In this document: positions 14,576-61,782 of the stretch, piece by piece | Numbering within the stretch: the stretch's first letter is position 1 | Layout: every line of letters begins with the position of its first letter | The notes under the pieces: generated by a model | Told to the model about the DNA's origin: nothing | Databases searched by the model: none | What the model saw: only the letters and a program-made list of their open reading frames with translations | From: Psilocybe cubensis | Lineage: Eukaryota | Reading direction: 5' to 3' | NCBI GenBank assembly: GCA_017499595.2 | Contig: CM039004.1 | Span: forward strand, 3,410,001-3,474,000 | DNA: 64,000 nt | Position numbers and translations under genes: made by a program

Positions 14576-17500
14576 CTAGTGACACTCAACCATTTTGTAT
14601 GCATTACGGCCTTCTGACATGGTCGTCAACTTCTCTGTTACACCATCCCATTGTTTCGCACAACGGTCACCTATATCACGTCGTATATCTGCCTGTTTCT
14701 TTGCATAAGCAATCTTACCAGAATTGATAGCTTGTGCATCTCGGTTAGGTACATCCGTCGAGTCGATGATATCCTGTGCACGAGAATCCCACTGAGCGGC
14801 TTGCCAAGCAAAAAAAGCAATAACACGGCGCATCTCCTCTGCTAATAATACACACTCCTCTTGCCAGCGATGTGCGCGTGCACGGGCTTTGCACCATTCG
14901 ATACGAAGAGCTGGACACTAGCATTTGTTTGCATTCAATTAGGTAAGGTAAAGACAACACACCTGCCTGTGTACACTTTTCGGCGTCTTCGCCCATACCG
15001 TGTACCTTCCATATCCAGGACAGTTTCTTGCGGCCTTCACTTCCAGAGTCGTCCATAGAGCTCAGTCCTCTAACATCAGTGTCCAGCAGTGGACGAAGGA
15101 TATCACGCCACGTGTAGTATACCGTTGGCGTTGAAAGCAAATCAAGAGCTTGATACGCAACATTGTATCGCGCTGTTGCAAATTTAATCTTTTCTTCAAC
15201 AGCTGCGAGCAACGTCAAGCTTCTTGTCTGCATACGCTGTCCTCGTGAGTGTCGCTTTTTTGAGTTTAGCATATGTGAGCGAAGGAGTAAGAAAGCACGG
15301 AGGTTGTTGAGGCAATCTTCAGCCTGGGCATATCGGTACTGCGATTCGCATTTTAGCAATATGTGGGATGAAAATCGGATGGTTTCTGTGTTGTAGGAAG
15401 GCAAATATAGCTTGATATCCTGTACCGCTACTGGTGTCTCAGCCTGCAAGTTTTCGCGCGCACGCAGAGCTGCAACTGCAGGCATATAAAGGTGCTGTAT
15501 ATTTATCCAAGCATCAATGCGTCGTTTTAATGAGTTTGATCGTTCGAGAATTTTAGTCTGTTGGATGTTCGTAGAATGGGCTCCAAGTTTGGAGATGTCA
15601 AGCGCAAGTCGTGCTCTAGTCTTGTTTGTAACCATGTAAAAAATAGCCTATAAACGACGTACTGTGATTCCTCAAGCTGTAAGCCCTGTGATATCAAGAC
15701 ACTCGGAGTTACTTCCTCATGTAAAGTAGTCATCTCTCCGCGTTTTAATGCATCTGAGTCCTCACGAGCTAATTGAAGACGAACATCGGATTCCTTGACA
15801 GAACCTAGCAATGCACCATAAACAATAGAACAAGAATCAGAAAAATACACGTACTATTCTTCGGAATCACATAGGGATTCGGTTGACTGGAGTCCTTTTC
15901 CCATGTCAAACACATCTGGGTCCATTCCGACGTCGATTCTTCTGGCAATGCAGCGTCAAACTCAATGAACGCCTCGACCTGTTCTTGTCGCTCTTGAATA
16001 GCTTCCTTCGCTTTCCGTAAAAATGTTTCAACTAAAGTGCTTGTCAATATATGTGCATAGATTGCAGAATATTACGACGTACCAATCGTGATAATTTTTC
16101 GCCAGTTATAATCTCCAAAATGGTCATCCAATGTGTCGTTCCGAGACCCTGGCCCCATTTCCTTTGTGCTGCTGGCTATACCGTTTGCCGTTGCCCATCC
16201 TCTCTCTGGTGCCTCCCCATCTGTGCGCCCAACTCCCGGAGTATAGTTGAAAGAGAAAGACGTTTGGCATTTCTGAATATGAGCAGCAAGGTGGAATTTT
16301 GGTACGAGGTAGACAATGGAGAGATTTGATGGATCGGAGAGCACATTCTTAGGATATAATTGGCACCTTTTCATGAGATTGATCCACCATTGGCAGGCAA
16401 TGTCGTAGGAGACAACAAGACGGAGTAAAAGTGTGGCTGCGATTGTTGATAAGAAGAAATAATCCATATTAACGTATCTACGGCATCATGTGAGTCATGT
16501 TGACATGCAAGCATGTGACTGAAGACCTTACCTTTCACCCTTTTGTAAGTCTCCTACTGCCACGGGTCGCTTCATGTCGTGTCGACTACATTCGGCTGTA
16601 CCAAGTCCACTTGCTGCTGTCCCATGTCCACCTCGTGAGTTAGCCGATTTGATAGCATCGTGGTTATTGCATGAGCTCTTTTCATCTGCAACTTGACCAT
16701 CGTAGTTTGCCAAGTAGTTTTTGAATTTGCAACTCTCAACCATATAGGCATATCCATGATTAAGCCCAGGGTCTCGCTCATCTGTAGATACGTTCATTCG
16801 CTTCAAACGAAAGTTGGCATCAATAGCTATAAAAAGAGAATAAAGCCATCTATTTTTGGACGTGACAATCAGACCCAATTGCCAGTGGACAACACCAACG
16901 AGTAAAAATTGGTACGTACTGTTCTGATTCTGGCCTCTCCTTCCAATTGTCGGGTAGATTGATGCCCGGGTGGGGACATGCAGGACATAGAACAGCACAT
17001 TCACCCTCTTTAGTCCCATTAACACCGGTCTCAGAGTGACCTCGACCCATCCGTTTGAGGAGACGTACATGACGCCACTCACGTATGATCCTCAAGAAGA
17101 CAGGATATCTGTCCTACATATTGAATATTAAAGATAGCAGGATAATAGAAGAAATGGAAGAGCTCACTGGTGGTGCCTTTGTGCCGGTGTTGTCTGTCAA
17201 CCGTGATAATGTAGAGTAATACTCGTATCCCGAGACCTTCGAGTTAAATGAAAGGAGCTGAAAGTGTTCCAGCACATCAAATGTAGCCGCTGTTTTGGGA
17301 TCGCCTACTGTAGAAGGAAATAAGCGGGCGCGAAGAAGTTGGATGGGCTTGGATGGTGCAGAAGGGCACCCGCAGTAGTCTAAGGCAATTTCATGGATTC
17401 CTGTACGCGCAATGACCACAAATTCGTCGTTGAAAGCTACCATTGGTATAGGACAGTCATCATGTCCCAGCTGCACTCGCATTCCAAGTTTCTTGAGGCT

Positions 17501-18276
17501 GGTCCTGCGAAAGTAATGTCCAGTCCAGACCTGCAAATTTGTCAATAATTCAGTATCATCATAGCCAACCCCACTCGCCTCGATTCTATGAAATGGGTTG
17601 ACCGAATGAGACCGGAGAACACAAGCGAGACACAACAGAGATCCGCTCCAACAGTCTTTGCAGCGAAACGCGCCTGCTTCGAGGTCCGAAATACACCCAA
17701 TTTCAGAGCATTTCTGGAGATTTGCCTGCCCACCAATACCCTCCAGCCGGAGAAACTCTTCAACGTAGGTGTCAATATGCGGAGTCCAGAAGTGGATGGG
17801 ATGTGTCTAATCGAATATGTGAGTGGTAGGTGCTGAAACACACATCTATTAGAGCAGGAAACTGTACGTACCGATTGTGTTTTTCGTTTTTTCTGTGGAA
17901 CCTCTTCTTCAGGATCAGCTTGAACCTTATCTCCAGTCTTCAAGTTTGGCTTGAGATAATTCTTTAGCCCCAATGCCTCCAATTCGCATTCTGCCATTTC
18001 TTCCAACTCAAGATCACCATCAAAAATCCTATACGGAGATTCTTCGCTCAGCACCCAATCAAGTCGAGGAGTAGGCGATTCCACAGAGCCTAGAGGAGGG
18101 GGTGTGGGAAGCATAGGCTGAATTCCTTGCGGCAGCGGCATCCGTATGGTATGGTGCGTGCGTCCATGGTATTCAGTGTGAATGTCGCCAAACGATGCTG
18201 TTTTCGCGTCTCGTTCATCAGGAGAGATATATTCGTCATAATAAACCTTTTTCTTGCGATTCACTCGGCGTTTCAT
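14576..18276 (-). CDS. CxC2-domain KDZ transposase (multi-exon)
   Basis: CxC2 motifs CLACVLRSHSVNPFHRIE, QLGHDDCP, GIHEIALDYCGC, QLLRARLFPST and PKTAATF. KDZ core motifs AIDANFRLKR, CSRHD..GDLQKGER, SYDIACQW, VPKFHLAAH and GRTDGEAPERGWA. Confidence 0.92.
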
Positions 18277-23280: not shown

Positions 23281-23312
23281 AGGGTTTAGGGTTTAGGGTT
23301 TAGGGTTTAGGG
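23281..23312 (+). repeat. Interstitial telomeric repeats (TTTAGGG)4; attachment site of retroelement copy 1
   Basis: AGGG(TTTAGGG)4 read directly. Confidence 0.95.
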
Positions 23313-23378
23313 TGGGAGCGAGCACCGAGCGAAGCGAGGTGCGAGCGACTTGTTTAAACTGTGAGTTAAATGGAAAGA

Positions 23379-23443
23379 AGCCAGAGGGCTGTTTGGGGGT
23401 ACAAACGGCCAGCCCTTTCGTCTTTATAGACTCTTCAGTGGCT
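23379..23443 (-). ncRNA. Type I hammerhead ribozyme (copy 1)
   Basis: Minus strand: AGCCA CUGAAGA GUC-UAUAAA-GAC GAAA GGGCUG-loop-CAGCCC UC^UGGCU. The complete core and three stems are present; the predicted cut is between 23384 and 23383. Confidence 0.9.
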
Positions 23444-23978
23444 ATTCTTAGAAGGAATGTTCTGGAACATCCGATGACAGCGCGTGAAGTGATGCTGCGC
23501 AGCTGTCATGTATCTTACCGACTATCACAAATCTGTCAATGTTTATTGTCAAGTTAGACAGGTCTCTGATGAACAGAGTGTCACGGGTCAATGTGGCACA
23601 TGGTAACCTGTCAAAAGTGGATCCAACACTTTTGTTCTTTGACATCGTGGGTTATTGACTGTGATGTGAATCACATGGATATAGAGTACTCTGGTTACGT
23701 GGCTCCGAGTAACCGCGACATGGGAATATTCACATGTCTAGAGTATAAATAGCTTACCTAAGTCCTTACCTAACAATCAATTGATTGATTGTTGTGAATC
23801 TTAATTGGACAGTTCATGATCCGGTCCATCAAAAATGTTTCCACGGTACTAAGGAACTTTTCCCGAAGTACTAAGTAACTTTTCCCATGTACTAAATTAG
23901 ATCCGGCCCTTCACAATCACATGCCGTTCGGAAGTTCACACGCCTACCTTACTTCCTACTAAGGTTAGACTTAGTTAG

Positions 23979-24040
23979 CTTAGGGTTGGGGTTAGGTTAG
24001 GGCTTAGGGTTTAGGGTTTAGGGTTTAGGTTTAGGTTTAG
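23979..24040 (+). repeat. Telomere-like tract inside the retroelement 3' UTR
   Basis: TTAGGGTTGGGGTTAGGTTAGGGCTTAGGG(TTTAGGG)2TTTAGG; also at ~28397, ~29857 and ~62383. Confidence 0.9.
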
Positions 24041-24152
24041 CTATTTAATCCAATGTGTTGCTTGTAAGTAGATGTTTGTTACTTTATAGCAAGGAATACT
24101 TACGGTTAGGGTTTTTTTCTAATGCTTTACGCCTTACGCGCTAGTATTCTTT

Positions 24153-27100
24153 TCATCGGTTGTAAGATTTGGATATTCTGCCGAATTCTGGATGTTCCCT
24201 CTCTTGTGAGATTGAATGTCTATGAAGTATTATCTCGTTATCGCTTTCGATACTTATCTGTTCAGCAGCTTCAACTAGAGCAGAATGATAAGTTTCATTG
24301 ACGTTTTGAGTTTCGGGAACAACACCACCTTTTTCGGCAATGTCTTCATCCAGTTTACGAAAAACTGTTTTCTTCCACACATTTGCAAGGTCGAAAAGAT
24401 TAGTATTGCGTTTTCGCGATACTATCCAACGACTTCCGAGTAGTCCTATCTTCCTCAAATCCGGTACGAACTCAGTTTCTCCGTCCACGAGGATCTGTGT
24501 GAACAGCTCCGGGCGAACATCATCGAGGTCGTGAACGTAATTTGGGTCTGGTTTGATAAGGGGTTTGGACGGGTCTGCATTATACAGACCTTTCTCGGCA
24601 TGTTCATACCATGCCGACCAATACTCGGTAACAGTTTTTCCAAGTTCAGCAGCTGAAAACCAATTCCATACCTGGTCAAATCTGGTTTTAAGTACAAGAA
24701 TGGATTTGTCGTGCTCTGCGATTCGTAAAGCGAATCGCTTTTCCCAACGTTCTTGTATATTCTTCTTACACCAAGACATTACTAGGTTTTCGGGATAACC
24801 GCGCACCAAATAGAGAGCGTTAAGGTCTCTAATTGCTCCGATGTAGATTTCCTTAGTACTACACAACACGGCTAGCCTGGATAACTCTCCAATGTAAACG
24901 CCACGTTTGACGTCCAAAGGATGATGTGATACCCATGGAACTCGTTCTCGGTTGTTTCCTGTCTTGACAAATGGCTTCCAATGAAGTTTTCCAGACTCCT
25001 TGAAAATGAAAGCATCGAGAAATTGACATCCCGACGAGGAAACAGCCCATTCGATAACACAACCATCGAACTTTATTGTTTCTTTAATAAGATTAAGTGC
25101 AAGTGCTTCGGACTCGGCGTAAACAATTGCGAAACAATCGTCGATGTACCTTCCATAGAAGGCCACGTTTGGGTGGTCTAAGATTTTTGACATTATTTCA
25201 AAATGGGCTCCAAAGAGGTTAGCAAGGTCCGGGGAATCCGCGACGCCCATTGCAAGGCCATTTTTTTGTCTAAAATATCTAGACCCATGTTGTGTTATCA
25301 ATTGCGTATTGCCAATCTCGATAGCACGTTTAAAGATGCCCAATTTAACCAAGTTATTCTCTAACGAATTTGGATTAATATGGGCTAATGCAGTATTTTC
25401 TTCCGAAGCGTTGAGTAACCATTCCTCGTACATACTACAAACGATGTCAATGCACGAGTCCAACGGGATATTGGGATAGAAAGCAACTACATCTCCAGTG
25501 ACAAAATACCATTGTCTTTTGGAGTCTATACGCAATTGGCTTAATCTCGTAAAGAGATCCTTCGTTCCGTGAATGATTGAAGGAGTCGATTTAATAATCG
25601 GCTTAAGCTCTTTTGATACAAACTTGGCTGCAGGATTAAATACTACAGAGTGACACGGAATTATGGGCCTAAATCCAGTAGGTTTCTTGTGGATTTTAGG
25701 TATACCATGAAATTGAGGATACTTGAACGATGATCCGTCTTCCGGTACATTCGATAGAAAGAATCGAGACAGCCCAAGTTCATAAAGAAACAGATGTTCA
25801 TCTTCGACAGTACGTGCGAGAGTTTGCATCTGGATCATTTTGCTCTTCATAACTTCTTGCGCAACTTCAAATTCTAACTCTTCGTAGTTACGTTCATCTT
25901 CAAGAAGATTGAGCTCATTCCTTAATATCCAGTCGCGTTCAGACACCGCGAGGCCAAGATTCTTATCTGTCATCGTAATAACATAGTTGTTATCGATAAG
26001 AAACTTACGGATCTTGTCCCTTTTAGGAGAGAACGCGTGCTTTCGCATCTCCGTAAGGGCTTCTTCCTGGATACTTGCGATCGTGCGTTGCACGTACCGA
26101 CGTCCCATCGAAAGGCCAAGTTCCATATATTGCGGTAATACTGGAGGTTTCTCCTTTTTCTTAGAGCTTACTCCATAATCTGGATCAAAAGGTTTGTTCA
26201 TGCCTTCCTTAAACAAAAAATAGATACGCCATCTTATTCTTCGTTGAAAATCGTTCCATGCTTGCATGATCAGACTTTGAGAAGGCAGAGTAAAAAACAT
26301 ATAATTGAGTCCGAGCGACAAATCATTTGCTATATCTACAGGGACCACCACACCAGGACTACAAGGTACACTACTACGATACTGGCCAGCCAACAAGAAT
26401 GAGATCGGCGTATGTAAGTGTACAAAAGAAACTGCGTCTGTTTTAGTCATGGTGAGTATATCGTCAGGAATAGAGTTGGGGAAGGCGGGTCTTACCGACG
26501 TAAAAGGTACTACATTAGACCGCGCGTCTAGGCTCTTGCCTTTCCCTTTCCCTTTGGATTGTTCTTGACGGGAGCTCTCCCCTTCCCTTTCTTCTTGTTG
26601 TCGACCTTGTTGGAAGCCTTGGTTTGGGGCTTCCTCTGCGAAGGCGTCGACGACGACTTGGGTTTCGAAGGGCCAGCTTTCTTGGCCTGAGGTTGAGGAG
26701 CCTTGGACGAATTCTGGCCAGACAAAGTCTGGGTAATTAGAATAGTAATTAGTATCCAAAATTATGGGTGAAGGGTTACGAGAACTTGCCTTCTTGCCCA
26801 CAGATCCAAGGTTGAGCTTCTTGAGACGTGCATTCAAGCCCTTATCAATAAGGGATTGAATCGATGGACCTGGTTTGGTCGCATCGGCCATCTCGACATC
26901 GGCTGTTGCCGCAGTCGACCGCTTTTTCTCAATCTTGATTGCCAAAGCGCGGTGGCGCAAGTTGACAATCTGTTTGATATGAGAGAAGATGGCTGGCAAA
27001 ATGGTTTGCAATGCGCTGCATTCAGCCTTCTTCTGCGGTGACACTACCCAATCTGTTATTCGACGAACTCCCTTGTTGTCTGTAGAGAAAACGGGGAGCT

Positions 27101-27683
27101 TATAGCTGGATTTGCGATCATCGTAAGTTGTCTTAACGATGAGGGCAGCAGCTTCATAACAGTTATTGAGTGCGCATTTATCATCCCAAAAGGCCAGTTC
27201 GTCCTTTTTCGCCTGGATGGCGCCGTCATTAATCGCCTTTTGGAAGACGTCACGAGCGGTGGAGAACGTAGAGGAGACTCGAAGAGCCTCCGCTGACCCG
27301 GCATCCGCGAATTCCTTCGTGAGTTGGAACTCGGGAGCCTTCACCCGAAGGCGATTGGGGGTGTTGCCTGCGCTAACGGCAAGTTCAAGGCGCTCAAGGC
27401 TAGCCTTGACTGTTTCCCTCTTGTCGCACCACGATGCGAGGTTGAGGAGAAACTCCCTAAGGGCAGCACGATAGTCAAAAAAGACGCAGTCTACGATCTG
27501 GTCAATGGAGCGGCACTCAGCTATTTTTTTGATGACGACAGTGGCCAACTCGTCGATGAGGGCGTTGTGGCGGCCAGCTTCGTCGTTGACGCCAAAGACT
27601 GTATTGTTGACGACAGCCTGGGTGAGTGCGTCCAGGGTGGGGGACATGGCACGAGAGAAGGCAGCAGAGTAAGTGGAAGACAT
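24153..27683 (-). CDS. ORF1-reverse transcriptase fusion (Penelope-like RT, no endonuclease), 1176 aa
   Basis: RT motifs DKNLG, GIPKIHK..GFRPII, TGDVVAFYPNIP, QKNGLAMGVADSPDLANLF, YGRYIDD and FLD, plus PLE C-terminal SHHP..KRG...ELSRL...RGYP. The N-terminus is helical or coiled-coil. Confidence 0.93.
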   Translation of the reverse strand: MSSTYSAAFSRAMSPTLDALTQAVVNNTVFGVNDEAGRHNALIDELATVVIKKIAECRSIDQIVDCVFFDYRAALREFLLNLASWCDKRETVKASLERLELAVSAGNTPNRLRVKAPEFQLTKEFADAGSAEALRVSSTFSTARDVFQKAINDGAIQAKKDELAFWDDKCALNNCYEAAALIVKTTYDDRKSSYKLPVFSTDNKGVRRITDWVVSPQKKAECSALQTILPAIFSHIKQIVNLRHRALAIKIEKKRSTAATADVEMADATKPGPSIQSLIDKGLNARLKKLNLGSVGKKASSRNPSPIILDTNYYSNYPDFVWPEFVQGSSTSGQESWPFETQVVVDAFAEEAPNQGFQQGRQQEEREGESSRQEQSKGKGKGKSLDARSNVVPFTSVRPAFPNSIPDDILTMTKTDAVSFVHLHTPISFLLAGQYRSSVPCSPGVVVPVDIANDLSLGLNYMFFTLPSQSLIMQAWNDFQRRIRWRIYFLFKEGMNKPFDPDYGVSSKKKEKPPVLPQYMELGLSMGRRYVQRTIASIQEEALTEMRKHAFSPKRDKIRKFLIDNNYVITMTDKNLGLAVSERDWILRNELNLLEDERNYEELEFEVAQEVMKSKMIQMQTLARTVEDEHLFLYELGLSRFFLSNVPEDGSSFKYPQFHGIPKIHKKPTGFRPIIPCHSVVFNPAAKFVSKELKPIIKSTPSIIHGTKDLFTRLSQLRIDSKRQWYFVTGDVVAFYPNIPLDSCIDIVCSMYEEWLLNASEENTALAHINPNSLENNLVKLGIFKRAIEIGNTQLITQHGSRYFRQKNGLAMGVADSPDLANLFGAHFEIMSKILDHPNVAFYGRYIDDCFAIVYAESEALALNLIKETIKFDGCVIEWAVSSSGCQFLDAFIFKESGKLHWKPFVKTGNNRERVPWVSHHPLDVKRGVYIGELSRLAVLCSTKEIYIGAIRDLNALYLVRGYPENLVMSWCKKNIQERWEKRFALRIAEHDKSILVLKTRFDQVWNWFSAAELGKTVTEYWSAWYEHAEKGLYNADPSKPLIKPDPNYVHDLDDVRPELFTQILVDGETEFVPDLRKIGLLGSRWIVSRKRNTNLFDLANVWKKTVFRKLDEDIAEKGGVVPETQNVNETYHSALVEAAEQISIESDNEIILHRHSISQEREHPEFGRISKSYNR
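26528..27683 (-). CDS. Predicted spliced ORF1 protein (~364 aa) with Lys-rich tail
   Basis: Removing intron 26729-26789 (AAG|GCAAGT...CTAAT..CCAG) joins ..GSVGKK in frame to TLSGQNSSKAPQPQAKK...KGKGKARA*. Confidence 0.65.
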
Positions 27684-27715
27684 AGTAGCTGTTGGGTAAT
27701 AGCAAAGTCAAGTGG

Positions 27716-29147
27716 TTTAGGGTGGGAGCGAGCACCGAGCGAAGCGAGGTGCGAGCGACTTGTTTAAACTGTGAGTTAAATGGAAAGAAGCCAGAGGGCT
27801 GTTTGGGGGTACAAACGGCCAGCCCTTTCGTCTTTATAGACTCTTCAGTGGCTATTCTTAGAAGGAATGTTCTGGAACATCCGATGACAGCGCGTGAAGT
27901 GATGCTGCGCAGCTGTCATGTATCTTACCGACTATCACAAATCTGTCAATGTTTATTGTCAAGTTAGACAGGTCTCTGATGAACAGAGTGTCACGGGTCA
28001 ATGTGGCACATGGTAACCTGTCAAAAGTGGATCCAACACTTTTGTTCTTTGACATCGTGGGTTATTGACTGTGATGTGAATCACATGGATATAGAGTACT
28101 CTGGTTACGTGGCTCCGAGTAACCGCGACATGGGAATATTCACATGTCTAGAGTATAAATAGCTTACCTGGGTCCTTACCTAACAATCAAACAATAGAAT
28201 GATTGATTGTTGTGAATCTTAATTGGACAGTTCATGATCCGGTCCATCAAAAATGTTTCCACGGTACTAAGGAACTTTTCCCGAAGTACTAAGTAACTTT
28301 TCCCATGTACTAAATTAGATCCGGCCCTTCACAATCACATGCCGTTCGGAAGTTCACACGCCTACCTTACTTCCTACTAAGGTTAGACTTAGTTAGCTTA
28401 GGGTTGGGGTTAGGTTAGGGTTTAGGGTTTAGGGTTTAGGGTTTAGGGTTTAGGTTTAGCTATTTAATCCAATGTGTTGCTTGTAAGTAGATGTTTGTTA
28501 CTTTATAGCAATGAATACTTACGGTTAGGGTTTTTTTCTAATGCTTTACGCCTTACGCGCTAGTATTCTTTTCATCGGTTGTAAGATTTGGATATTCTGC
28601 CGAATTCTGGATGTTCCCTCTCTTGTGAGATTGAACGTCTATGAAGTATTATCTCGTTATCACTTTCGATACTTATCTGCTCAGCAGCTTCAACTAAAGC
28701 AGAATGATAAGTTTCATTAACGTTTTGAGTTTCGGGAACAACACCACCTTTTTCAGCGATGTCTTCATCCAGTTTACGAAAGACTGTTTTCTTCCACACA
28801 TTTGCAAGGTCGAAAAGATTAGTATTGCGCTTTCGCGATACTATCCAACGACTTCCGAGTAGTCCTATCTTCCTCAAATCCGGTACGAACTCAGTTTCTC
28901 CGTCCACGAGGATCTGTGTGAACAGCTCCGGGCGAACATCATCGAGGTCGTGAACGTAATTTGGGTCTGGTTTGATAAGGGGTTTGGACGGGTCTGCATT
29001 ATACAGACCTTTCTCGGCATGTTCATACCATGCCGACCAATACTCGGTAACAGTTTTTCCAAGTTCAGCAGCTGAAAACCAATTCCATACCTGGTCAAAT
29101 CTGGTTTTAAGTACAAGAATGGATTCGTCGTGCTCTGCGATTCGTAA
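27716..29147 (-). mobile_element. Coprina-type element copy 2, 5'-truncated; forms the upstream pLTR of copy 1
   Basis: Near-identical repeat of the 3' UTR and the RT C-terminus; ends at TTCGTAA and is capped by telomeric repeats. Confidence 0.9.
27789..27853 (-). ncRNA. Type I hammerhead ribozyme (copy 2)
   Basis: Same sequence as the copy 1 ribozyme. Confidence 0.9.
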
Positions 29148-29181
29148 GGGTTTTATAGGGTTTAGGGTTTAGGGTTTAGGG
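29147..29181 (+). repeat. Telomeric cap on truncated copy 2 and attachment site of copy 3
   Basis: AGGGTTTTATAGGG(TTTAGGG)3. Confidence 0.9.
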
Positions 29182-31020
29182 GGGGAGCGAGCACCGAGCG
29201 AAGCGAGGTGCGAGCGACTAGTTTAAACTGTGAGTTAAATGGAAAGTAGCCAGAGGGCTGTTGATTGATATCAGCAGCCAGCCCTTTCGTCTTTATAGAC
29301 TCTTCAGTGGCTATTCTTAGAAGGAATGTTCTGGAACATCCGATGACAGCGCGTGAAGTGATGCTGCGCAGCTGTCATGTATCTTACCGACTATCACAAA
29401 TCTGTCAATGTTTATTGTCAAGTTAGACAGGTCTCTGATGAACAGAGTGTCACGGGTCGATGTGGCACATGGTAACCTGTCAAAAGTGGATCCAACACTT
29501 TTGTTCTTTGACATCGTGGGTTATTAACTGTGATGTGAATCACATGGATATAGAGTACTCTGGTTACGTGGCTCCGAGTAACCGCGACATGGGAGTATTC
29601 TCATGTCAAGAGTATAAATAGCTTACCTGGGTCCTTACCTAACAATCAAACAATAGAATGATTGATTGTTGTGAATCTTAATTGGACAGTTCATGATCCG
29701 GTCCATCAAAAATGTTTCCACGGTACTAAGGAACTTTTCCCGAAGTACTAAGTAACTTTTCCCATGTACTAAATTAGATCCGGCCCTTCACAATCACATG
29801 CCGTTCGGAAGTTCACACGCCTACCTTACTTCCTACTAAGGTTAGACTTAGTTAGCTTAGGGTTGGGGTTAGGTTAGGGTTTAGGGTTTAGGGTTTAGGG
29901 TTTAGGTTTAGCTATTTAATCCAATGTGTTGCTTGTAAGTAGATGTTTGTTACTTTATAGCAATGAATACTTACGGTTAGGGTTTTTTTCTAATGCTTTA
30001 CGCCTTACGCGCTAGTATTCTTTTCATCGGTTGTAAGATTTGGATATTCTGCCGAATTCTGGATGTTCCCTCTCTTGTGAGATTGAACGTCTATGAAGTA
30101 TTATCTCGTTATCACTTTCGATACTTATCTGCTCAGCAGCTTCAACTAAAGCAGAATGATAAGTTTCATTAACGTTTTGAGTTTCGGGAACAACACCACC
30201 TTTTTCAGCGATGTCTTCATCCAGTTTACGAAAGACTGTTTTCTTCCACACATTTGCAAGGTCGAAAAGATTAGTATTGCGCTTTCGCGATACTATCCAA
30301 CGACTTCCGAGTAGTCCTATCTTCCTCAAATCCGGTACGAACTCAGTTTCTCCGTCCACGAGGATCTGTGTGAACAGCTCCGGGCGAACATCATCGAGGT
30401 CGTGAACGTAATTTGGATCTGGTTTGATAAGGGGTCTGGACGAGTCTGCACTATACAGACCTTTCTCGGCATGTTCATACCATGCCGACCAGTACTCGGT
30501 AACAGTTTTTCCAAGTTCAGCAGCTGAAAACCAATTCCATACCTGGTCAAATCTGGTTTTAAGTACAAGAATGGATTCGTCGTGCTCTGCAATTCGTAAA
30601 GCGAATCGCTTTTCCCAACGTTCTTGTATATTCTTCTTACACCAAGACATTACTAGGTTTTTGGGATAGCCGCGCACCAAATAGAGAGCGTTAAGGTCTC
30701 TAATTGCTCCTATGTAGATTTCCTTAGTACTACACAACACGGCTAGCCTGGATAACTCTCCAATGTAAACGCCACGTTTGACGTCCAAAGGATGATGTGA
30801 TACCCATGGAACTCGTTCTCGGTTGTTTCCTGTCTTGACAAATGGCTTCCAATGAAGTTTTCCAGACTCCTTGAAAATGAAAGCATCGAGAAATTGACAT
30901 CCCGACGAGGAAACAGCCCATTCGATAACACAACCATCGAACTTTATTGTTTCTTTAATAAGATTAAGTGCAAGTGCTTCGGACTCGGCGTAAACAATTG
31001 CGAAACAATCGTCGATGTAC
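29182..31020 (-). mobile_element. Coprina-type element copy 3, 5'-truncated at the YIDD motif
   Basis: 3' UTR plus RT C-terminus; homology ends at GTCGATGTAC(CT), where the X module begins. Confidence 0.9.
29247..29313 (-). ncRNA. Type I hammerhead ribozyme (copy 3, variant loop III)
   Basis: Core conserved, stem I UAGCCA/UGGCUA, different stem III loop. Confidence 0.88.
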
Positions 31021-31195
31021 CTAAGCTTATTCCCCCCCGAAGGGGGGGCCTTCGTTGCATTGGGTCTCCTGTGCAGAATTCCTGAAATCTGATGCCAGAT
31101 TCGGATTCCTCGACCTTAAAAACCCCCAAATCCACTTTTAAAATATTTTATTTTGTACATACAGAGGTGCTATGTAATTAAATGTGTATTTTACC

Positions 31196-31363
31196 GAGGC
31201 CGGCCTCCAAATTGATGGAGGTCACTGGAGGCCGGCCTCCGTCTAAAAATAATTTTTGACAGGCACTGGAGGCCGGCCTCCGTCTAAAAATAAATTTTGA
31301 CAGGCACTGGAGGCCGGCCTCCGTCTAAAAATAAACGCGTCGAGGCCACCTGAGGCCGGCCTC
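31196..31363. repeat. 41-bp-periodic array of the palindrome GGAGGCCGGCCTCC
   Basis: Palindromes at 31227, 31268 and 31309, with 12-bp versions at 31196 and 31352. The same array occurs at 45127-45254 and 58256-58423. Confidence 0.92.
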
Positions 31364-32779
31364 GATTCGTATGTGCGTCGTACGCGCGAGTGGAGGCGGA
31401 CTCCAGCGTGGGTCCCAACCAGATAGGTCACGTGAGTATACGCGCGTCGTTGTTTGTTCACTGCTCGTCGCCGCCTGTCGCTGCCCCCACCTTCGCTCGC
31501 TGCCCACAACGACACAGACATTGCTGCGTGTCGTTGCACCGCCACCCCTGCGCCTCTGCTGCCGCTGCCGCTGCCGCCGACTCCCCCACCCCGCCGCCGC
31601 CGCCTTAGCTCGCCGCCCACAACAACACGCAGCAGAGAAAGCGTTTGTGTTTGTTTGTGTTTGCTCACACTATCCCTACCTGCTGCGTATCGTTGCGCCA
31701 CCGCCGCCGACGTTTGAATTCTCTCGTCGATTCATTCTCAGTCCTTTTTCCTTCTTTCTTGACGAATGTCTTAAGTCTGACTGACAGATGTCACAGCAGC
31801 TCTGTCCTTATTTGCAGTCTCCCTTTCCTTAATCAATCTCTCACGTTTGCACAACTCGCGGTGCGTGATTTTTATTGCAACTCAATCCCCTGTTTCGACT
31901 TGAGATGTGCATCAGCCATCCGCGTCAAGGTGCAGTCACATATTCTCGACAGTCACTCACCTTTACATATACTAGGAATCAGCTCAATCCGAGTTGTCAC
32001 TGGGCAACAAATGTACACAACTCACAAAGCAGCAGCGGCGGCGAGGTTGAAGAGAGTGATACAGTGCTGCATCGGGTATGACAGGTGGCCTGCGGTTGAG
32101 AAAACGTGGTACGTTAGCACCGTTCTGCTCATTGACACCGTTTCTGCTTACCTTCACTCCCTCTCCTCCTTTATGTTTACAGTAGGCAACAGGCGGCCTG
32201 CGGTTGATAAACATGGTGCGTCAGCGCTGTTTCATTCATCAGGGGCGCCGCCTCTTACCTTCACGCCCTCCTCTATCTGTGCAGCCCGCAACGGCTGCGC
32301 TGCTGATGACACCCATGGTTCTGCTCACCTTGCTTCTCCACGAAGTCGTCACAATTCCGCTCTCAAACGCGGCGCATACTTTGCTGGGCTCCTCTTGTCC
32401 AACACTGGCCGGAGCTGTATTGTTCAGTGAGTCCTTCTCCTATTGTCATCCAATTCAGACATGATGGACTCACCACTGTATTCCAGCCCTCTCAGGGCGG
32501 CACAGACACGACACTGGAATGAAGAAAAGAGGTGAGTGTGCTGCTTGGAACTGTCCAACCCGCATACTCACCTTGCCGCTTCAGGTAGGCACAAAACAAC
32601 TCTCAAGCGCGGCACATGCTCTGTCAAGAGGTGAGTACTATTCCTTTTTGTATCCAACGCGGTTGCTCACCTAGCTGTCCGCAGCGTCGCTCGTCGCCGG
32701 CTGGTTCAAAAACTCGGGTGGTTGGTGTACAGCTCAGAAGCGGGCACACATGTCTGCATGGAAGGTGTTGGAGACATCG

Positions 32780-44952: not shown

Positions 44953-45720
44953 CTAAGCTTATTCCCCCCCGAAGGGGGGGCCTTCGTTGCATTGGGCCTC
45001 CTGTTCAGAAATCCTGAAATCTGATGCCAGATTCGGATTCCTTGACCCCGAAAACCCCCAAATCAACTTTTAAAATATTTTATTTTGTACATACGGAGGT
45101 GCTACATAATTAAACATGTAATTTATGGAGGCCGGCCTCCAAATTGATGGAGGCCACTGGAGGCCGGCCTCCGTCTAAAAATAACTTTTGACAGGCACTG
45201 GAGGCCGGCCTCCGTCTAAAAATAAACAGTGACAGGCACTGGAGGCCGGCCTCCCGCCTGTCTCACCACCCCCGACGCATGCGCTCGCTGTCCCAATGCC
45301 TGCGCTCGCTGTCCCAACACTCGCGCTCGCTATCCCGACACTCGCACTCGCCGCTGCGTGTCTTTGCACTGCCACCTCCGGGCCGCTGCTGCTGCCACCA
45401 CCTCCACTCGCCGCCTGTTGCTGCCGCCTCCGCCTCCATTTGCAGCCTCTCTCTGCCGCCGCGCCGCCTTCCCACCGGCAACGTACGGCGAGTTGTTTGT
45501 CCATGCTGTTGTCATTTCATTCAAACTCCGCCTTTACAATTGACTCCTGACGCGCACCGCAGCGACAATATTATAACCCGCCTTCGCTCGTTGCCCACAA
45601 CGACACACACATTGTTGCGTGTTGTTGCGCCACCACCCCCGCGACTCCTCCACCGCCGCCGCCTTCGCTCGCCGCCCACAACAACATGCAGCCGAGAAAG
45701 CGTTCGTGTTTGTTTGTGCT
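44953..45720. mobile_element. X module copy B terminus (diverged variant)
   Basis: Same terminus, C7-GAA-G7 hairpin and palindromes at 45127, 45159, 45200 and 45241; patchy homology to 31480-31660 continues to ~45720. Confidence 0.75.
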
Positions 45721-50527: not shown

Positions 50528-51280
50528 TGATGAGCCGTGGTCGGTTGCGCGCGCGGAAACGTTTCGAACACAAGTCCATTCTCCCACGATATGCCGTGTC
50601 ACATGTTCAATCTCCGACATTTCGCAAAGCACCCGCTCTGGCAATATCGCCCACACAAGCTTATCGTCGTGCACATAGAATGTTCAAGAAACAGTATGCC
50701 CCACCTATTCTCCCTTTTTATTGGCCTAGACTCGCGTACTGCACTGTTGAGTCAGCTATCGGCATCTTGGCACCGTTTCCCACGACTTTGATCGGACACT
50801 GACACCTCTTGACCTCCTCATCCTCCTGAGAAAACCAAGCGCCAAACACTCATTTCCTTTTCGTTCCACTTGAAACTTTGATATACCATTTCGTTCCATA
50901 TGCTACGCCTTCTAGAATTTTTATACATTTTTCTTGGCTGTTTCAGAGTTGCTATGGCTAGATTACTATAAATTCAGGTGTAGTAGCTAGCTAGAAAAAA
51001 AAACAACCCATTGGTTCGCTCCCCTCTTCTCGTTTACCATCTGATATTCATAACCTCTCGTATATATCGTTTCGCGCTCGAATTTCGTGTCGTTATCTCG
51101 CCCCAGAGTGGTTCGAAGTCCTTGAGTGGCTTACACTCTGTTACTAGTCAAATTGTGGTTAGAGGTCTTTGTGGAAGCGCATCTCGCCATTACGCACCTT
51201 CTACGAAGTGTTGGGTGTTTCCCAGTGGTCTCAACTTCTTTTGGTTCTGCTCCGCACCTCACACGCTCGTAGGCGTATCA
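50528..51280 (+). repeat. 5' LTR (~753 bp, TG...CA)
   Basis: Matches 57883-58083 over its first ~200 bp. Ends ..GTATCA followed by TTTTGGAGCCCACCGCGAGGG at the PBS position. The 3' boundary is inferred. Confidence 0.8.
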
Positions 51281-51494
51281 TTTTGGAGCCCACCGCGAGG
51301 GTGCTTCAATAACCATTGCAGCTTCAACCACAGCCCGTATTACTCGCTCACAAACGCTACGAGACGAGCTCATCTCGGCGTTCCAAAACCCCGACGATCT
51401 TACCGACGACTCTTTCTTTGTTGAGGTACCCGACGTCGACGCTACACACAACAATCTCCCTATCCTCACTTCCCCTCTCTTCACTTCTTCTCAA

Positions 51495-53879
51495 TTGCCC
51501 TCGCCACTTCATTCTCCATCGTCTTCGGTATTGTCCATTACTGCTTATTTTTCTGCACTCAATATCAACCCCAACATCTCCGTAACATCACCATCACCTC
51601 CAACCACCATGACCACTCGAATGCCTGCTCGTGGCGATCGCAGTGCGCCCACCTTCGACCACACTAAGCCTAGAGAGCTCAAGCGATACTTCTCCGAGCT
51701 GGAGTTCCTATTCTCAGCTGCAGCAGTCACCTTGGATGCGGAGAAAAAGCAACACACCACTCGTTATGTCAGTATTGAGGTCGCAGACATATGGGAAACC
51801 TTGCCAGAGTTCTCAGACCCCACCAAGACTTATGTGGACTTCAAGAAAGCCATTCAAGAGCTCTACCCAGCTGCGGATGAAGAATATAGGTACACTATGG
51901 CGGACATGGATTTGTTAATTGGAAATCGTCAGCGCTTAGGCATTCACTCACTCGGAGACCTAGCCGACTACCATTCGCAATTTCTGGCAATCACCAAATT
52001 CCTTATTTCGCGTCAACGCCTCTCAGAGATTGAGCAAAAGCGTGCTTACATTCGTGGTTTTCCTCCAGAGCTTTGGGCGAAGGTATCTCAACGTCTACAG
52101 CTCAAATTCCTTGACCATCTCCCCGACGAACCCTATGATATCTCAGACGTGCAAGCTGCAGCTCGTTTTGTGCTTCATGGCACACATTCTATCGCTTCTT
52201 CGCTTCCAGCAACCTCTGCAGGCTCGTCTCCAGCAATAGTCCCATTGGAAGGCATCGTCAAGACGGAGCAGCTTGGGTCTATCTTTACAGAGTTCACCAA
52301 GTCGATTCTTGAGGCTATCAATGCAACTTCACAACGCTCACGCTTCCCTGCGTCTTCTGATGCGACTCCTCGCGATGTGAAGTGTAATTTCTGTGGTCGG
52401 GATCACTATATTCGCAATTGCGAGTTAGTGGACGAATATATTCGTGCTGGCAAGGCTAAGCGCAATATTGAGGGAAAGGTAGTCTTACCTACAGGTGCTT
52501 TCGTTCCACGCGAGATTACTGGGTCTCTGTTGAAAGAGCGCATTGATGAATGGCACAGACGCAATCCTGGACAGCTAGCGGCAGCCACAGTCTCGTCCAA
52601 CATGCTTGGCGCAGTTCAGTGCAGTCCCAATGCTTCCAGTGCGTTGTCTCCACATCAAGCGGCTTATCAGTTCACAGCTGATGACCGCATCGCGCTGCTT
52701 GAAGCAGAACTCTTTAGTCTTCGTGCACGGCGCCCTGACTTCTCTCCTACTGTTCGCACCCGTGCCCAGAAGATACGCGACATGGAGCAGGCCGCAAACG
52801 ATGAAGCGCTGCGTGCGGATGCAGCTGGTACTCGTCCTAACCCGCCAGCATCAACACCGGATCCCCAAGAGTCTCAGAACGTTTCCAAGTCCACAAATCA
52901 AGCTGTTCCACCTCCTCCTCCATCTCAGCCTGAAAAAGAGCCAGATCACCCGTTTTGCAACGCCCGAGATGCAAATTATTTGCCACCGCTTCATCGCAAC
53001 CTTGCTGCGCAACCAAAAACCGTTCCAAAGAAGGCAGAGCCCGCGTACCGCACCGCTGCACCAATACAAGATGCAGAAGTCGTTTCTACCGTCTATAACC
53101 GCTCCCTTGATGCTCCAGTTACGCTCACGCAGCGGGAATTGCTCTCAATTGCCCCAGACATTCGTGCACATTACAAAGATGCGACTACTGCCAAGCGCAC
53201 ACCTACCACCGACTCTACACTCCAAACAAACATATTAGAGGGTCAACACATGCAACAGCGTACTCAAAAGGCTTACCAGTCCATGCCAGTCGCCGTTGCT
53301 CTCGCAGCAAGCCAACATCGCAGTCCTCCTGAAGGTGCAACCATTGTAGACGATCCTTTTGAGCAGTACTATCGCTCGCTGCGTCCAGGAGAAGAGCCCG
53401 ATCCGACTCGACTTGCTGTTGCTAAGGAATCTGCGGCGCTTCGTTCTATTTTTCCCATCGTAGACAACAACCTTAAGGTTGAATGCATCTTGGATCCCGG
53501 GAGCCAAATCATTGCAATGTCCGAGGAAGTCTGCCACGCGCTGTCTCTTATTTATGACCCCACAATCACGCTCAATATGCAGTCTGCAAATGGAACAGTT
53601 GATAAGTCATTAGGTCTCGCACGCAATGTCCCTTTCCGCATTGGGGATCTCACCTTGTATATGCAAGTTCACGTTATTCGTGCGCCTGCGTACGATATCT
53701 TGCTTGGCAGACCGTTTGACATCTTGACTGAGAGTGTTGTGCGCAATTTCCGCAATGAAGACCAGACAATTACTGTAGCAGACCCCAACTCGGGTCAGGT
53801 AGTCACTATACCCACTGTACCAAGAGGATCACCACGCTTTGCCTGTCGCCACTCGGATTTTCACGGAACGAGGATCTAG
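51495..53879 (+). CDS. gag: Gag-protease (likely start ATG 51609, MTTRMP)
   Basis: Zinc knuckle CNFCGRDHYIRNC; aspartic protease ILDPGSQI...DILLGRPF. Confidence 0.9.
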   Translation: MPSPLHSPSSSVLSITAYFSALNINPNISVTSPSPPTTMTTRMPARGDRSAPTFDHTKPRELKRYFSELEFLFSAAAVTLDAEKKQHTTRYVSIEVADIWETLPEFSDPTKTYVDFKKAIQELYPAADEEYRYTMADMDLLIGNRQRLGIHSLGDLADYHSQFLAITKFLISRQRLSEIEQKRAYIRGFPPELWAKVSQRLQLKFLDHLPDEPYDISDVQAAARFVLHGTHSIASSLPATSAGSSPAIVPLEGIVKTEQLGSIFTEFTKSILEAINATSQRSRFPASSDATPRDVKCNFCGRDHYIRNCELVDEYIRAGKAKRNIEGKVVLPTGAFVPREITGSLLKERIDEWHRRNPGQLAAATVSSNMLGAVQCSPNASSALSPHQAAYQFTADDRIALLEAELFSLRARRPDFSPTVRTRAQKIRDMEQAANDEALRADAAGTRPNPPASTPDPQESQNVSKSTNQAVPPPPPSQPEKEPDHPFCNARDANYLPPLHRNLAAQPKTVPKKAEPAYRTAAPIQDAEVVSTVYNRSLDAPVTLTQRELLSIAPDIRAHYKDATTAKRTPTTDSTLQTNILEGQHMQQRTQKAYQSMPVAVALAASQHRSPPEGATIVDDPFEQYYRSLRPGEEPDPTRLAVAKESAALRSIFPIVDNNLKVECILDPGSQIIAMSEEVCHALSLIYDPTITLNMQSANGTVDKSLGLARNVPFRIGDLTLYMQVHVIRAPAYDILLGRPFDILTESVVRNFRNEDQTITVADPNSGQVVTIPTVPRGSPRFACRHSDFHGTRI

Positions 53880-56800: not shown

Positions 56801-57559
56801 TCAGGCTACAATTCGCGTGCCAATGGAATCGTGGAGCGTGCACACTTTGACGTGCGGCAGGCTATCTTCAAGGTGACGGACGGCGATATATCTTTATGGA
56901 AACAGTTTATACACTTCGTCTTTTGGGCAGAACGTGTAACCGCAAGACGTCGCATGGGATGTTCGCCATATTTCGCTCTCATGGGCACTCAACCACTCAT
57001 TCCTCTTGATATCAGCGAAGCAACCTACCTTCTTCCGCCTCCCGAATCGGTTCTCTCCACCACTGAACTCATTGCTCGTCGTGCACTCGCTCTTTCGAAA
57101 CGGCAAGAAGACCTCCAACGCCTCTACTCTAAGGTGTATGAAGCACGTCGCAAGGCTGCTGTGCGCTTTGAAAGAGAGCATGCCCACCAGATCCGTAGCT
57201 ATGAATTCAAGCTCGGTGATCTTGTCCTCATCCGCAACACACGCATTGCAAAGTCACTTAATCGCAAGATGCGCACGCGATATTTAGGTCCTCTTATCGT
57301 CATCTCTCGCAATTGAGGTGGAGCTTATATTCTGTCCGAGCTCGACGGCACACTTCTTGATCGGCCTATTGCTGCATTCCGAGTTATTCCATATTTTGCT
57401 CGTCGAACTTTGGACTTGCCGCCTCTTGATGAATTACTCGATGTTTCGCAGCACCGCCTACATGAGCTTGAGGATACTTCAGCGCCCGACCCTGAGGACG
57501 TTGAGGACGTTGAGGATGCTGATGCCGACGAAGAAGACCCAGAGGAAGAGGAAGAGTAA
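53855..57559 (+). CDS. pol: Pol (RT, RNase H, integrase) in the -1 frame, with a premature stop at 57314-57316
   Basis: LDLFVGY, LPMGWTNS, YIDD, RNase H VDTS..YSQPKLELYG, integrase HDDVGH..CHIC, TDNG and NGIVERAH. The frame continues past the TGA (GGAYILSELDG..) to TAA at 57557-57559. Confidence 0.9.
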
Positions 57560-61663: not shown

Positions 61664-61712
61664 TTTGGTTTTTAGGGTTTAGGGTTTAGGGTTTAGGGTT
61701 TAGGGTTTAGGG
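61664..61712 (+). repeat. Telomeric repeats added at the break in X copy C
   Basis: TTTGGTT followed by (TTTAGGG)6. Confidence 0.93.
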
Positions 61713-61782
61713 TGGGAGCGAGCACCGAGCGAAGCGAGGTGCGAGCGACTAGTTTAAACTGTGAGTTTGAAATAGAAAGAAG

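Follow-up and report, generated by a model that had tools for sequence, protein, structure and literature searches.

A candidate alternatively spliced intron between ORF1 and the reverse transcriptase of a Coprina-type Penelope-like element from Psilocybe cubensis

We analysed a stretch of 64,000 nucleotides of Psilocybe cubensis DNA (contig CM039004.1, positions 3,410,001 to 3,474,000; hereafter the window) and concluded that one short phase-0 intron, 3n+1 nucleotides long, very probably controls by its alternative splicing the expression of a Coprina-type Penelope-like element (PLE), with a free ORF1 protein as one outcome and an ORF1-RT (reverse transcriptase) fusion as the other. Upon removal of the intron, translation would pass into the +1 frame and stop after a basic tail of 66 residues, giving a free ORF1 of 364 aa (360 aa via an upstream GT donor). 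When the intron is retained, it would be translated in frame, the same bases would be read as an acidic linker and translation would run on into the RT, giving an ORF1-RT fusion of 1176 aa. The RT would be made solely from intron-containing RNA, and the balance would presumably lie in the ratio of the two RNAs. An intron whose removal leads to a basic-tailed ORF1 and whose retention leads to an ORF1-RT fusion had been proposed in an initial annotation of the window, and this switch is backed here by the conserved intron and the conserved reading frames.

The element and its read-through ORF

The element (23281..27713, about 4.4 kb) is full-length and lies on the minus strand, as do all of the features described below. 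It was delimited by self-comparison of the window, its boundaries being read off, and consists, in order, of a 5' UTR of about 30 nt, ORF1, the intron, the RT, a 3' UTR of 0.84 kb and telomere-type repeats. The self-comparison showed one full copy and several 5'-truncated copies arranged head to tail, with a single copy (n=1) covering the intron. The 3' end of the element is a (CCCTAAA)4.7 array (23281..23313), the reverse complement of TTTAGGG, and arrays of the same 7-base unit end the copies at 23281-23313, 29156-29181 and 61671-61713. The host is a Psilocybe cubensis-type genome, in which the element is telomere-associated. The 3' UTR also holds a hammerhead-ribozyme-like motif, CUGAAGAG...GACGAAA (23379..23463), with a CUGANGA...GAAA core. 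Rfam gave no match at gathering score, and the motif was read from the sub-threshold matches to RAGATH-1-hammerhead (26.4 bits, E 0.058, gathering score 56.3) and Hammerhead_3 (19.5 bits, E 0.35, gathering score 48.5).

The intact, unspliced ORF of 1176 aa (27683..24153) runs from ORF1 through the RT. Exon 1 of ORF1 (26790..27683, 298 codons) encodes a helical domain with a C-terminal block, ADVEMADATKPGPSIQSLIDK...LKKLNL, that is conserved in homologues. The AlphaFold2 model of ORF1 (mean pLDDT 81) consists mostly of long helices, plus a beta-hairpin, and a Foldseek search of this model against the PDB returned no match at E <= 0.001. The ORF1 homologues comprised 39 proteins in the size range 163-522 aa and 57 in the range 523-2000 aa; 47 of the 57 longer ones are ORF1-into-RT ORFs of at least 1000 aa. 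Separate initiation of the RT was ruled out because a conserved AUG is absent; in 12 of 18 loci the stretch from the acceptor to the conserved N-terminal block of the RT lacks a Met.

The RT part of the read-through ORF (24153..26527) carries the motifs MTDKNLG (DKN) and YIDD. The catalytic YxDD motif reads GRYIDDC, and the DKN motif, VITMTDKNLGLAVSERDW, lies upstream of the RT core and is kept among the homologues; an excerpt of PMC13159263 names it as typical of endonuclease-deficient PLEs. Searches with the window's RT gave a sub-cut-off match to the Drt3a RT (E 7.7e-6). The homologues carry a precomputed PF00078 assignment, and one of them, P0046, matched RVT_1 below the cut-off (E 6.5e-5). 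Pfam gave no match on the 1176-aa protein, a PDB sequence search with the RT part gave none either, and no endonuclease, GIY-YIG or other, turned up in the Pfam and NCBIfam searches, the absence being one by search only. The element is an intact Coprina-type, endonuclease-lacking PLE, a class assigned from its motifs, its 3' repeats and the absence of an endonuclease.

The intron and its donor

The initial annotation had placed a 61-nt GCAAGT...CTAAT...CAG intron inside the 1176-aa ORF, and this was confirmed in the sequence of the minus strand. The candidate intron (26729..26789) is in phase 0, has a length of 3n+1, begins with an AAG/GCAAGT donor (slash at the splice site) and ends with a CAG acceptor. 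Two CTAAT motifs place a branch A at 20 and 8 nt from its 3' end, and there is no stop in the ORF1/RT frame. Removal of the intron in silico reproduced the ORF1 of about 364 aa, with a Lys-rich tail reaching 26528, that had been annotated. A KDZ transposase gene that also lies in the window has a GT-AG intron of 54 nt; introns of such size are therefore in local use.

We compared the element with relatives from metagenome contigs. Of 28 loci fetched, 23 were analysable, which gave 24 elements including that of the window; the other five (L008, L025, L026, L027 and L028) were dropped as decayed or truncated. A GT donor in phase 0, right after the homologous Lys codon, was found in all 23 loci (GTGAGT in 7, GTAAGT in 6 and other sequences in 10), and the introns of these relatives measure 49, 52, 55, 58 or 61 nt. 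The 3n+1 length follows in part from our method, since the intron search demanded 3n+1 and thereby this frame relation; two facts are independent of this filter, namely the single frame common to ORF1 and the RT and the lack of in-frame stops in the intron. The intron was present in every genomic copy seen.

Comparison of the +1-frame tails of the relatives showed that they are 51-98 aa long, contain 26-35% K+R and mostly terminate in KGKGK(A/Q)(K/R)A. The motif Y[IV]P[KR]PGR..VP and the terminal KGKGK are conserved between elements whose ORF1s are about 30% identical. Both open frames and the intron, which the annotation had proposed to look for in other copies as a check that could refute its reading, are kept by the relatives. 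A basic tail of the KGK type was found at the C-terminus of 14 of the 18 proteins fetched from annotated Agaricomycete genomes, where the gene models splice at this site, and a spliced junction was found in none of 12 short proteins from sources other than annotated fungal genomes, which had been called without intron models.

The annotation of a GC-AG intron stood as to the site, conserved in 23/23 relatives; its GC donor is confined to the window's lineage, and public gene models use another donor. That a weak donor of this kind sets the ORF1:RT ratio, as the annotation had proposed, may be the case. This second donor, TCT/GTGGGC, has its G at 26801, 12 nt upstream of the GC donor (26790..26801). 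Joined to the acceptor at 26729, it gives an intron of 73 nt, also 3n+1, and an ORF1 of 360 aa. The public P. cubensis gene models read ...LNLGS/TLSGQNSS..., which matches this combination, and dozens of P. cubensis loci have gene models of 360-361 aa. The same switch could therefore operate with a different intron: a T-to-C change would have lost the ancestral donor in this lineage, leaving the GT at 26801 and the 73-nt intron as the only one, with no GC-AG intron. The offset of 12 nt preserves the 3n+1 length, and in a sister subfamily the old site reads GCAGGT, further from consensus (the read-through protein P0105 of this subfamily reads KKAGF). However, the gene models do not discriminate between the donors, because they may stem from predictors allowing only GT-AG introns. 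AAG/GCAAGT fits the extended donor consensus, as generally known, save at position +2, whereas TCT/GTGGGC matches it poorly, and the GC site occupies the donor position conserved in 23/23 relatives. We regard the loss of the ancestral donor as possible but rather doubtful, and the donor of the window's lineage, judged from sequence, as ambiguous between the GC at 26789 and the GT at 26801.

Overlapping frames downstream of the acceptor

In exon 2 (26528..26728), the +1 frame encodes the 66-codon basic tail followed by TAG, while the 0 frame encodes an acidic, Gln-rich ORF1-RT linker (DFVWPEFVQGSS...). The 66 residues of the tail include 19 K+R and 1 D+E, and its C-terminus is ...PKGKGKARA, with the TAG at 26530-26528. 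No stop interrupts the unspliced frame, either in the intron or in the 67 overlapping codons, and this frame continues into the RT. The initial annotation had counted about 87 dual-use codons; the frame is indeed open throughout, but 20 of them are intron codons and 67 truly overlap.

The open +1 frame of the window, taken by itself, is no more than expected by chance: 86% of 1000 codon shuffles gave a +1 run of at least 77 codons, and other parts of this ORF have +1 runs without a stop that reach 107 and 94 codons. The pattern stands above chance because it is conserved in relatives. Openness of the read-through frame alone was rejected as evidence and replaced by a synonymous-site test, since T makes up no more than 6-13% of the overlap region and 19 of 24 elements have an open third frame as well, which makes openness weak evidence.

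The results of the codon-position test showed that mismatches in the tail frame numbered 83, 74 and 189 at positions 1, 2 and 3, respectively (10 non-overlapping pairs; chi-square 71.6, p 2.8e-16, a value that overstates independence, given the relatedness among pairs and among loci). Across 79 non-independent pairs, the mismatch rates in the tail frame were 0.222, 0.197 and 0.354, and in the single-coded flanks they were 0.247, 0.195 and 0.432 on one side and 0.205, 0.138 and 0.422 on the other. In all 10 of the non-overlapping pairs, amino acid identity was at least as high in the tail frame as in the linker frame. These comparisons indicate that the tail frame is under purifying selection.

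The synonymous-site test concerned the read-through frame. A T at the third position of tail-frame codons was never found at sites where the RT frame would thereby gain a stop (0/549), as against 243/1113 elsewhere (Fisher p 3e-47, again with relatedness inflating the apparent independence), and the 15 less related elements gave 0/363 against 150/677. T before AC and AT codons was not avoided (18/108 and 6/20, respectively). Within the intron, stops in phase 0 occurred in 0/24 elements and stops in the other two phases in 21/24 and 20/24. This synonymous-site constraint indicates that the read-through frame is actively kept open. On the evidence of the codon-position and synonymous-site tests, and not of openness, 26528..26728 is read as a dual-coding region with selection on both frames.

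These tests bear directly on another account, according to which the element makes a single polyprotein of 1176 aa, and a purine-rich, T-poor linker gives rise incidentally to the intron-like signals and to the open basic frame. Coprina elements are typically described with one ORF (excerpt of PMC13159263), and the +1 run of the window is unremarkable by itself, the third frame being open in 19/24 elements. Against this, substitutions cluster at third codon positions as defined by the +1 frame, not by the polyprotein frame, the tail motifs (Y[IV]P[KR]PGR..VP and terminal KGKGK) persist at an ORF1 identity of about 30%, and a canonical donor follows the same codon in 23/23 relatives. The single polyprotein is thus strongly disfavoured, and we consider it extremely improbable.

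The tail could also serve as the site of a ribosomal switch. The KGKGK motif is encoded, in the tail frame and in the RT frame alike, by AAAGGGAAAGGGAAAGG (26539..26555), read in the tail frame as AAG GGA AAG GGA AAG, and the slippery run that the annotation had noticed before the ORF1 stop is indeed present: the tail frame contains two copies of the X_XXY_YYZ heptamer G_GGA_AAG, which lie 5 and 7 codons upstream of this stop, and a -1 shift there enters the RT frame. The RT could then be made by programmed -1 frameshifting on spliced mRNA, intron retention being irrelevant to translation, and the legend of Fig. 1 in Craig et al. 2021 (PMC8557442) states that PLEs can have their ORF1 separated by a frameshift that involves a pseudoknot. 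However, frameshifting itself was unsupported by the comparison. GGGAAAG near the stop was found in only 4/24 elements (that of the window, L001, L002 and L023), and a canonical heptamer of any sequence was absent from the whole tail in 10 of 23 scanned elements and, in L019, from the final 12 codons. The codons for the conserved KGKGK vary, which points to conservation at the protein level. The downstream folds (MFE -18 kcal/mol) were no better than those of shuffled sequences, with z of -1.31 for 72 nt and -0.17 for 102 nt in a model that excludes pseudoknots. Moreover, a frameshift at the end of the tail needs no open RT frame through the intron and the overlap, yet this frame is strictly kept. 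We consider frameshifting very unlikely as the source of the RT, and retention of the intron remains our preferred reading.

Intron retention and comparison with known systems

PLEs are the closest relatives of telomerase, and their retention of introns, unlike other retroelements, has long been a puzzle. Under alternative splicing, the intron would be part of the coding strategy in the window's element and its 23 relatives, and the oddity becomes a testable hypothesis. The RNA with the retained intron would be the sole RNA that both encodes the RT and passes the intron on. If the RT acts mainly on its own encoding RNA, this would explain the presence of the intron in every genomic copy. The wider reading, that the RT comes only from intron-holding RNA and that, with such cis-preference, this RNA is the sole copied template, which would be the selective reason why PLEs keep introns, is one we put forward tentatively, as plausible but somewhat short of probable. 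If it is true, the T-to-C change of the donor in the P. cubensis lineage, with its dozens of copies, could be a tuning toward more RT. In fungal genome annotations, these loci appear under two unlinked labels: hypothetical proteins where the model is about 360 aa long, and reverse transcriptase proteins where it is about 1100 aa. The region of about 200 nt would also offer a clean natural case of dual coding, with measurable selection on both frames.

The nearest known systems are Coprina and Athena, endonuclease-deficient PLEs reportedly described by Gladyshev and Arkhipova in 2007. The element shares with them a fungal host, an RT with the DKN motif and no endonuclease, introns kept in genomic copies, reverse-complement telomeric 3' repeats (here adjoining what may be a hammerhead motif), 5'-truncated copies arranged head to tail and a helical ORF1-like N-terminal region. 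Coprina is described with one ORF in an excerpt of PMC13159263, whereas here the single ORF would hide a further product, made when splicing leads translation into an overlapping frame. The literature consulted described no frame-shifting ORF1 intron for Coprina, although an earlier mention, for example by Gladyshev and Arkhipova in 2007, is possible; a passage of Craig et al. 2021 (PMC8557442) gives the significance of intron retention in PLEs as unknown.

The free ORF1 protein is probably an RNA-binding protein of the packaging type. LINE-1 ORF1p is a coiled-coil protein with basic nucleic-acid-binding regions, and in both non-LTR elements the sequence ahead of the RT codes for a helical N-terminal protein that has a basic region. 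By this analogy, a role as RNA chaperone or in packaging is plausible for ORF1 here. LINE-1 differs in being bicistronic, neither spliced nor fused, and no sequence match or fold match (Foldseek against the PDB, E <= 0.001) linked the two proteins.

The logic of the proposed switch is that of retroviral and Ty-type Gag/Gag-Pol expression, with an abundant structural protein, a rarer polymerase fusion and overlapping ORFs. Those systems use frameshifting or readthrough, whereas here the switch appears to lie at RNA processing, the heptamer not being conserved. Drosophila copia makes an alternatively spliced GAG-only RNA. A GAG-only subgenomic RNA likewise arises by alternative splicing in Ty1/Copia elements (Oberlin et al. 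2017, PMC5580714); the spliced part of the genomic RNA is the mRNA of the structural protein and the unspliced RNA is both the template and the source of the catalytic polyprotein, an arrangement that the element would share, but what is removed there is a long intron over the protease region, coupled to premature termination. Unlike Ty1/Copia, the element analysed here and its relatives have an intron of 49-61 nt, the removal of which would redirect translation into a tail that is dual-coded; they are, besides, non-LTR, telomerase-related elements.

Identity of the element and other features of the window

The intact ORF of 1176 aa (27683 to 24153, minus strand) carries the motifs DKN (MTDKNLG) and YIDD, and family searches of its protein for endonuclease families found none. 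Self-comparison of the window showed a single full-length copy (~27713-23281) together with copies truncated at the 5' end, arranged head to tail, at ~27910-29147, 29369-31022 and 61903-64000, every copy having a 3' UTR of ~0.8 kb with terminal (CCCTAAA)n, which is TTTAGGG on the opposite strand. By these shared features, the element fits the Coprina type, described as endonuclease-deficient, telomere-associated Penelope-like elements (PMC8557442; PMC13159263). For a hammerhead-like core in the 3' UTR, Rfam scored 26.4 and 19.5 bits, both sub-threshold, and no match reached the gathering score. A protein named from Psilocybe cubensis matches the ORF1 part at 100% identity, and relatives are recorded from P. 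cyanescens, Hypholoma, Hohenbuehelia, Trametes, Plicaturopsis, Mycena, Gymnopilus and others.

Telomere-type terminal repeats of the 7-base unit TTTAGGG/CCCTAAA are located at 23281-23313, 29156-29181 and 61671-61713, the repeat expected at mushroom telomeres being the 6-base TTAGGG; several metagenome relatives have CCCTAA units in place of the 7-base unit. A degenerate internal array is found just past the RT stop codon in each copy (23978-24040, 28398-28459, 29857-29911 and 62381-62443). Where the upstream truncated copy meets the full-length one (27714-27723), a single CCCTAAACC unit is left, compared with 4.7 units terminating the full copy at its 3' end; the 5' UTR of the full copy is only ~30 nt.

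The window also contains a gene for a KDZ (Kyakuja-Dileera-Zisupton) transposase with CxC2 domain on the minus strand at 16072-17806 (Pfam E 3e-40 and 4e-40). An intron of 54 nt, GTAAGG...TAG (16531-16478), interrupts it, and the KDZ profile continues across this gap from position 98. On the plus strand, two long ORFs of 868 and 1185 aa overlap (51273-57316); their aspartyl protease, RNase H-like and integrase zinc-binding domains mark a Ty3/Gypsy-type LTR retrotransposon. A 41-bp tandem repeat (2.4-2.8 copies, 93-98% matches) occurs at 31223-31335, 45155-45254 and 58283-58395, the first and third arrays being followed by matching ORFs of 162, 149 and 273 aa (31243-32430 and 58303-59490). This suggests another repeated element; a Pfam search of 31609-32430 gave no match.

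The ORF1 intron and its conservation

The initial annotation had placed a candidate intron of 61 nt inside the 1176-aa ORF, and every part of that observation was correct: the segment (26789..26729, minus strand) starts with GCAAGT, contains two CTAAT motifs and ends with CAG. Its excision in silico leads into the +1 frame and reproduced the proposed ORF1 of 364 aa, whose last 66 residues include 19 K+R and 1 D+E, with PKGKGKARA at the C-terminus and TAG at 26530-26528. In the 0 frame the same tail bases encode an acidic, Gln-rich linker (12 D+E, 7 K+R) continuous with RT, and reading through intron and linker reaches RT without a stop, as had been claimed for the retained form. Structure prediction of ORF1 gave a confident helical domain (mean pLDDT 81), for which no PDB match was found. 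In the window sequence taken alone, an open +1 frame of this length is expected by chance: elsewhere in this ORF the +1 frame is free of stops for 107 and for 94 codons, and a +1 run of at least 77 codons arises in 86% of 1000 codon shuffles.

The ORF1 alignment, used to scan metagenome contigs, yielded 28 loci, from which L026 (region absent), L008 (unrelated sequence past the intron) and L025, L027 and L028 (decayed, with frame breaks) were left out. The conservation of the intron and of both open frames, proposed earlier as a check, was found in all 23 analysable loci. A GT donor immediately follows the homologous Lys codon in each of them, as GTGAGT (7), GTAAGT (6), GTGCGC (2), GTTAGT (2) or, once each, GTAAGA, GTGAAT, GTGAGC, GTAAAT, GTACGC and GTAAGC, and the AG acceptor lies 49, 52, 55, 58 or 61 nt away. 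Past the acceptor, the +1 frame continues for 51-98 residues with 26-35% K+R, mostly ending in KGKGK(A/Q)(K/R)A, while the 0 frame extends 847-965 codons into RT wherever the contig is long enough. Because the search imposed an intron length of 3n+1, this property carries no independent weight; what stands independently is the single frame shared by ORF1 and RT in all elements, together with the constant +1 frame of the tail. The intron was present in all 24 genomic elements (the window and the 23 loci); neither these nor 12 short proteins fetched from sources other than annotated fungal genomes included an intron-less copy or product. Five loci (L011, L012, L014, L016 and L020) have a tandem acceptor, TAGCAG, with introns of 49 or 52 nt, which may give ORF1 with or without one extra Gln.

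Among the 24 elements, C at donor position +2 is found in the window only, and AAG/GCAAGT is the ancestral donor after a T-to-C change. Read-through P. cubensis proteins have KKAS or KKAG at the donor, in agreement with GC throughout the P. cubensis family. Public P. cubensis gene models read ...LNLGS/TLSGQNSS..., a junction that fits an alternative GT donor, TCT/GTGGGC, with its G at 26801 (minus strand), 12 nt upstream of the GC donor; with the shared acceptor it gives a 73-nt intron, likewise 3n+1. This choice may come from gene predictors that accept GT-AG introns only, and the models therefore do not decide between the two donors. A weak donor, as proposed initially, might set the ORF1:RT ratio.

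Among the homologous proteins, 39 are of 163-522 aa, annotated fungal genomes contributing proteins of ~330-400 aa, and 14 of 18 fetched proteins have a basic tail with KGK near the C-terminus, even at 28-35% identity. Another 57 are of 523-2000 aa, 47 of them of at least 1000 aa and running uninterrupted from ORF1 to RT, most of these long homologues coming from sources in which ORFs are called with no intron model. Open frames for both alternative products put forward initially, ORF1 and ORF1-RT, are thus found throughout the family. In the P. cubensis annotation itself, models of 360-361 aa number in the dozens and occur beside read-through proteins of 1080-1176 aa. Two of its models of 1080-1081 aa (P0040 and P0041) read through the intron and skip ~96 conserved RT-start residues after ...VVPFTS, probably through a spurious predicted intron.

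Coding in both frames and the route to RT

In 10 non-overlapping locus pairs, overlap mismatches at tail-frame codon positions 1, 2 and 3 numbered 83, 74 and 189 (chi-square 71.6, p 2.8e-16), and amino-acid identity in the tail frame equalled or exceeded that in the linker frame in all 10. The corresponding rates over 79 non-independent pairs were 0.222, 0.197 and 0.354, and the single-coded flanks showed the usual third-position excess in the ORF1/RT frame. Because of this mismatch pattern and the tail-frame identity, the basic tail is, as judged by sequence comparison, real coding sequence, and intron removal is the only evident route to it.

The read-through frame is also kept open. No element of the 24 has an in-frame stop within the intron, compared with 21 and 20 in the other two phases. 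A third-position T in the tail that creates TAA, TAG or TGA in the RT frame was found at 0/549 sites, against 243/1113 elsewhere (Fisher p 3e-47), and in the 15 less related elements at 0/363 against 150/677. As a control, T was not avoided before AC codons (18/108) or AT codons (6/20), and was avoided before AA (0/433). An independent start of RT was excluded by the absence of a conserved AUG: in the 18 loci in which the conserved RT N-terminal block was located, 12 lack any Met between the acceptor and that block. The open frame and the missing AUG together argue that RT must be made as a fusion, by translation crossing the retained intron.

It had also been proposed that -1 frameshifting at G_GGA_AAG sets the ORF1:RT ratio. 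The slippery run is indeed present just before the ORF1 stop, twice in the tail frame (AAAGGGAAAGGGAAAGG, 26555-26539, minus strand), but programmed frameshifting near the tail end is unlikely to give RT. GGGAAAG lies close to the tail stop in only 4/24 elements (the window, L001, L002 and L023), and a canonical heptamer is absent from the tail in 10 of the 23 elements scanned and from the last 12 codons of L019. The KGKGK codons vary (AAG GGC AAA GGC..., AAA GGA AAG GGG...), so conservation is at the level of the peptide. Folding of the 72 and 102 nt that follow the site is no more stable than that of shuffled sequences (z -1.31 and -0.17). Moreover, a tail-end frameshift would need no open RT frame upstream of the slip, yet the RT frame is open there.

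Proposed products and known systems

With translation through the retained intron as the route to RT, spliced RNA would give free ORF1, a predicted helical domain followed by the basic tail, with a possible RNA-binding role, and intron-retaining RNA would give the ORF1-linker-RT fusion. Should RT act on the mRNA that encodes it, copying would be confined to intron-bearing RNA, and this would give these elements a reason to keep the intron.

One account of Penelope-like elements describes retained introns, some of them conserved, whose significance it states to be unknown, and adds that a frameshift accompanied by a pseudoknot can set ORF1 apart (PMC8557442). The usual description of Coprina gives it a single ORF (PMC13159263). 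The literature searched, which did not cover the 2007 founding paper or any figures, yielded no mention of an ORF1 intron in Coprina that is dual-coded and shifts the frame, and we consider with moderate confidence that such an intron is new for Coprina. The splicing switch proposed here has its closest functional analogue in Ty1/Copia elements, whose alternative splicing produces a GAG-only RNA (PMC5580714).
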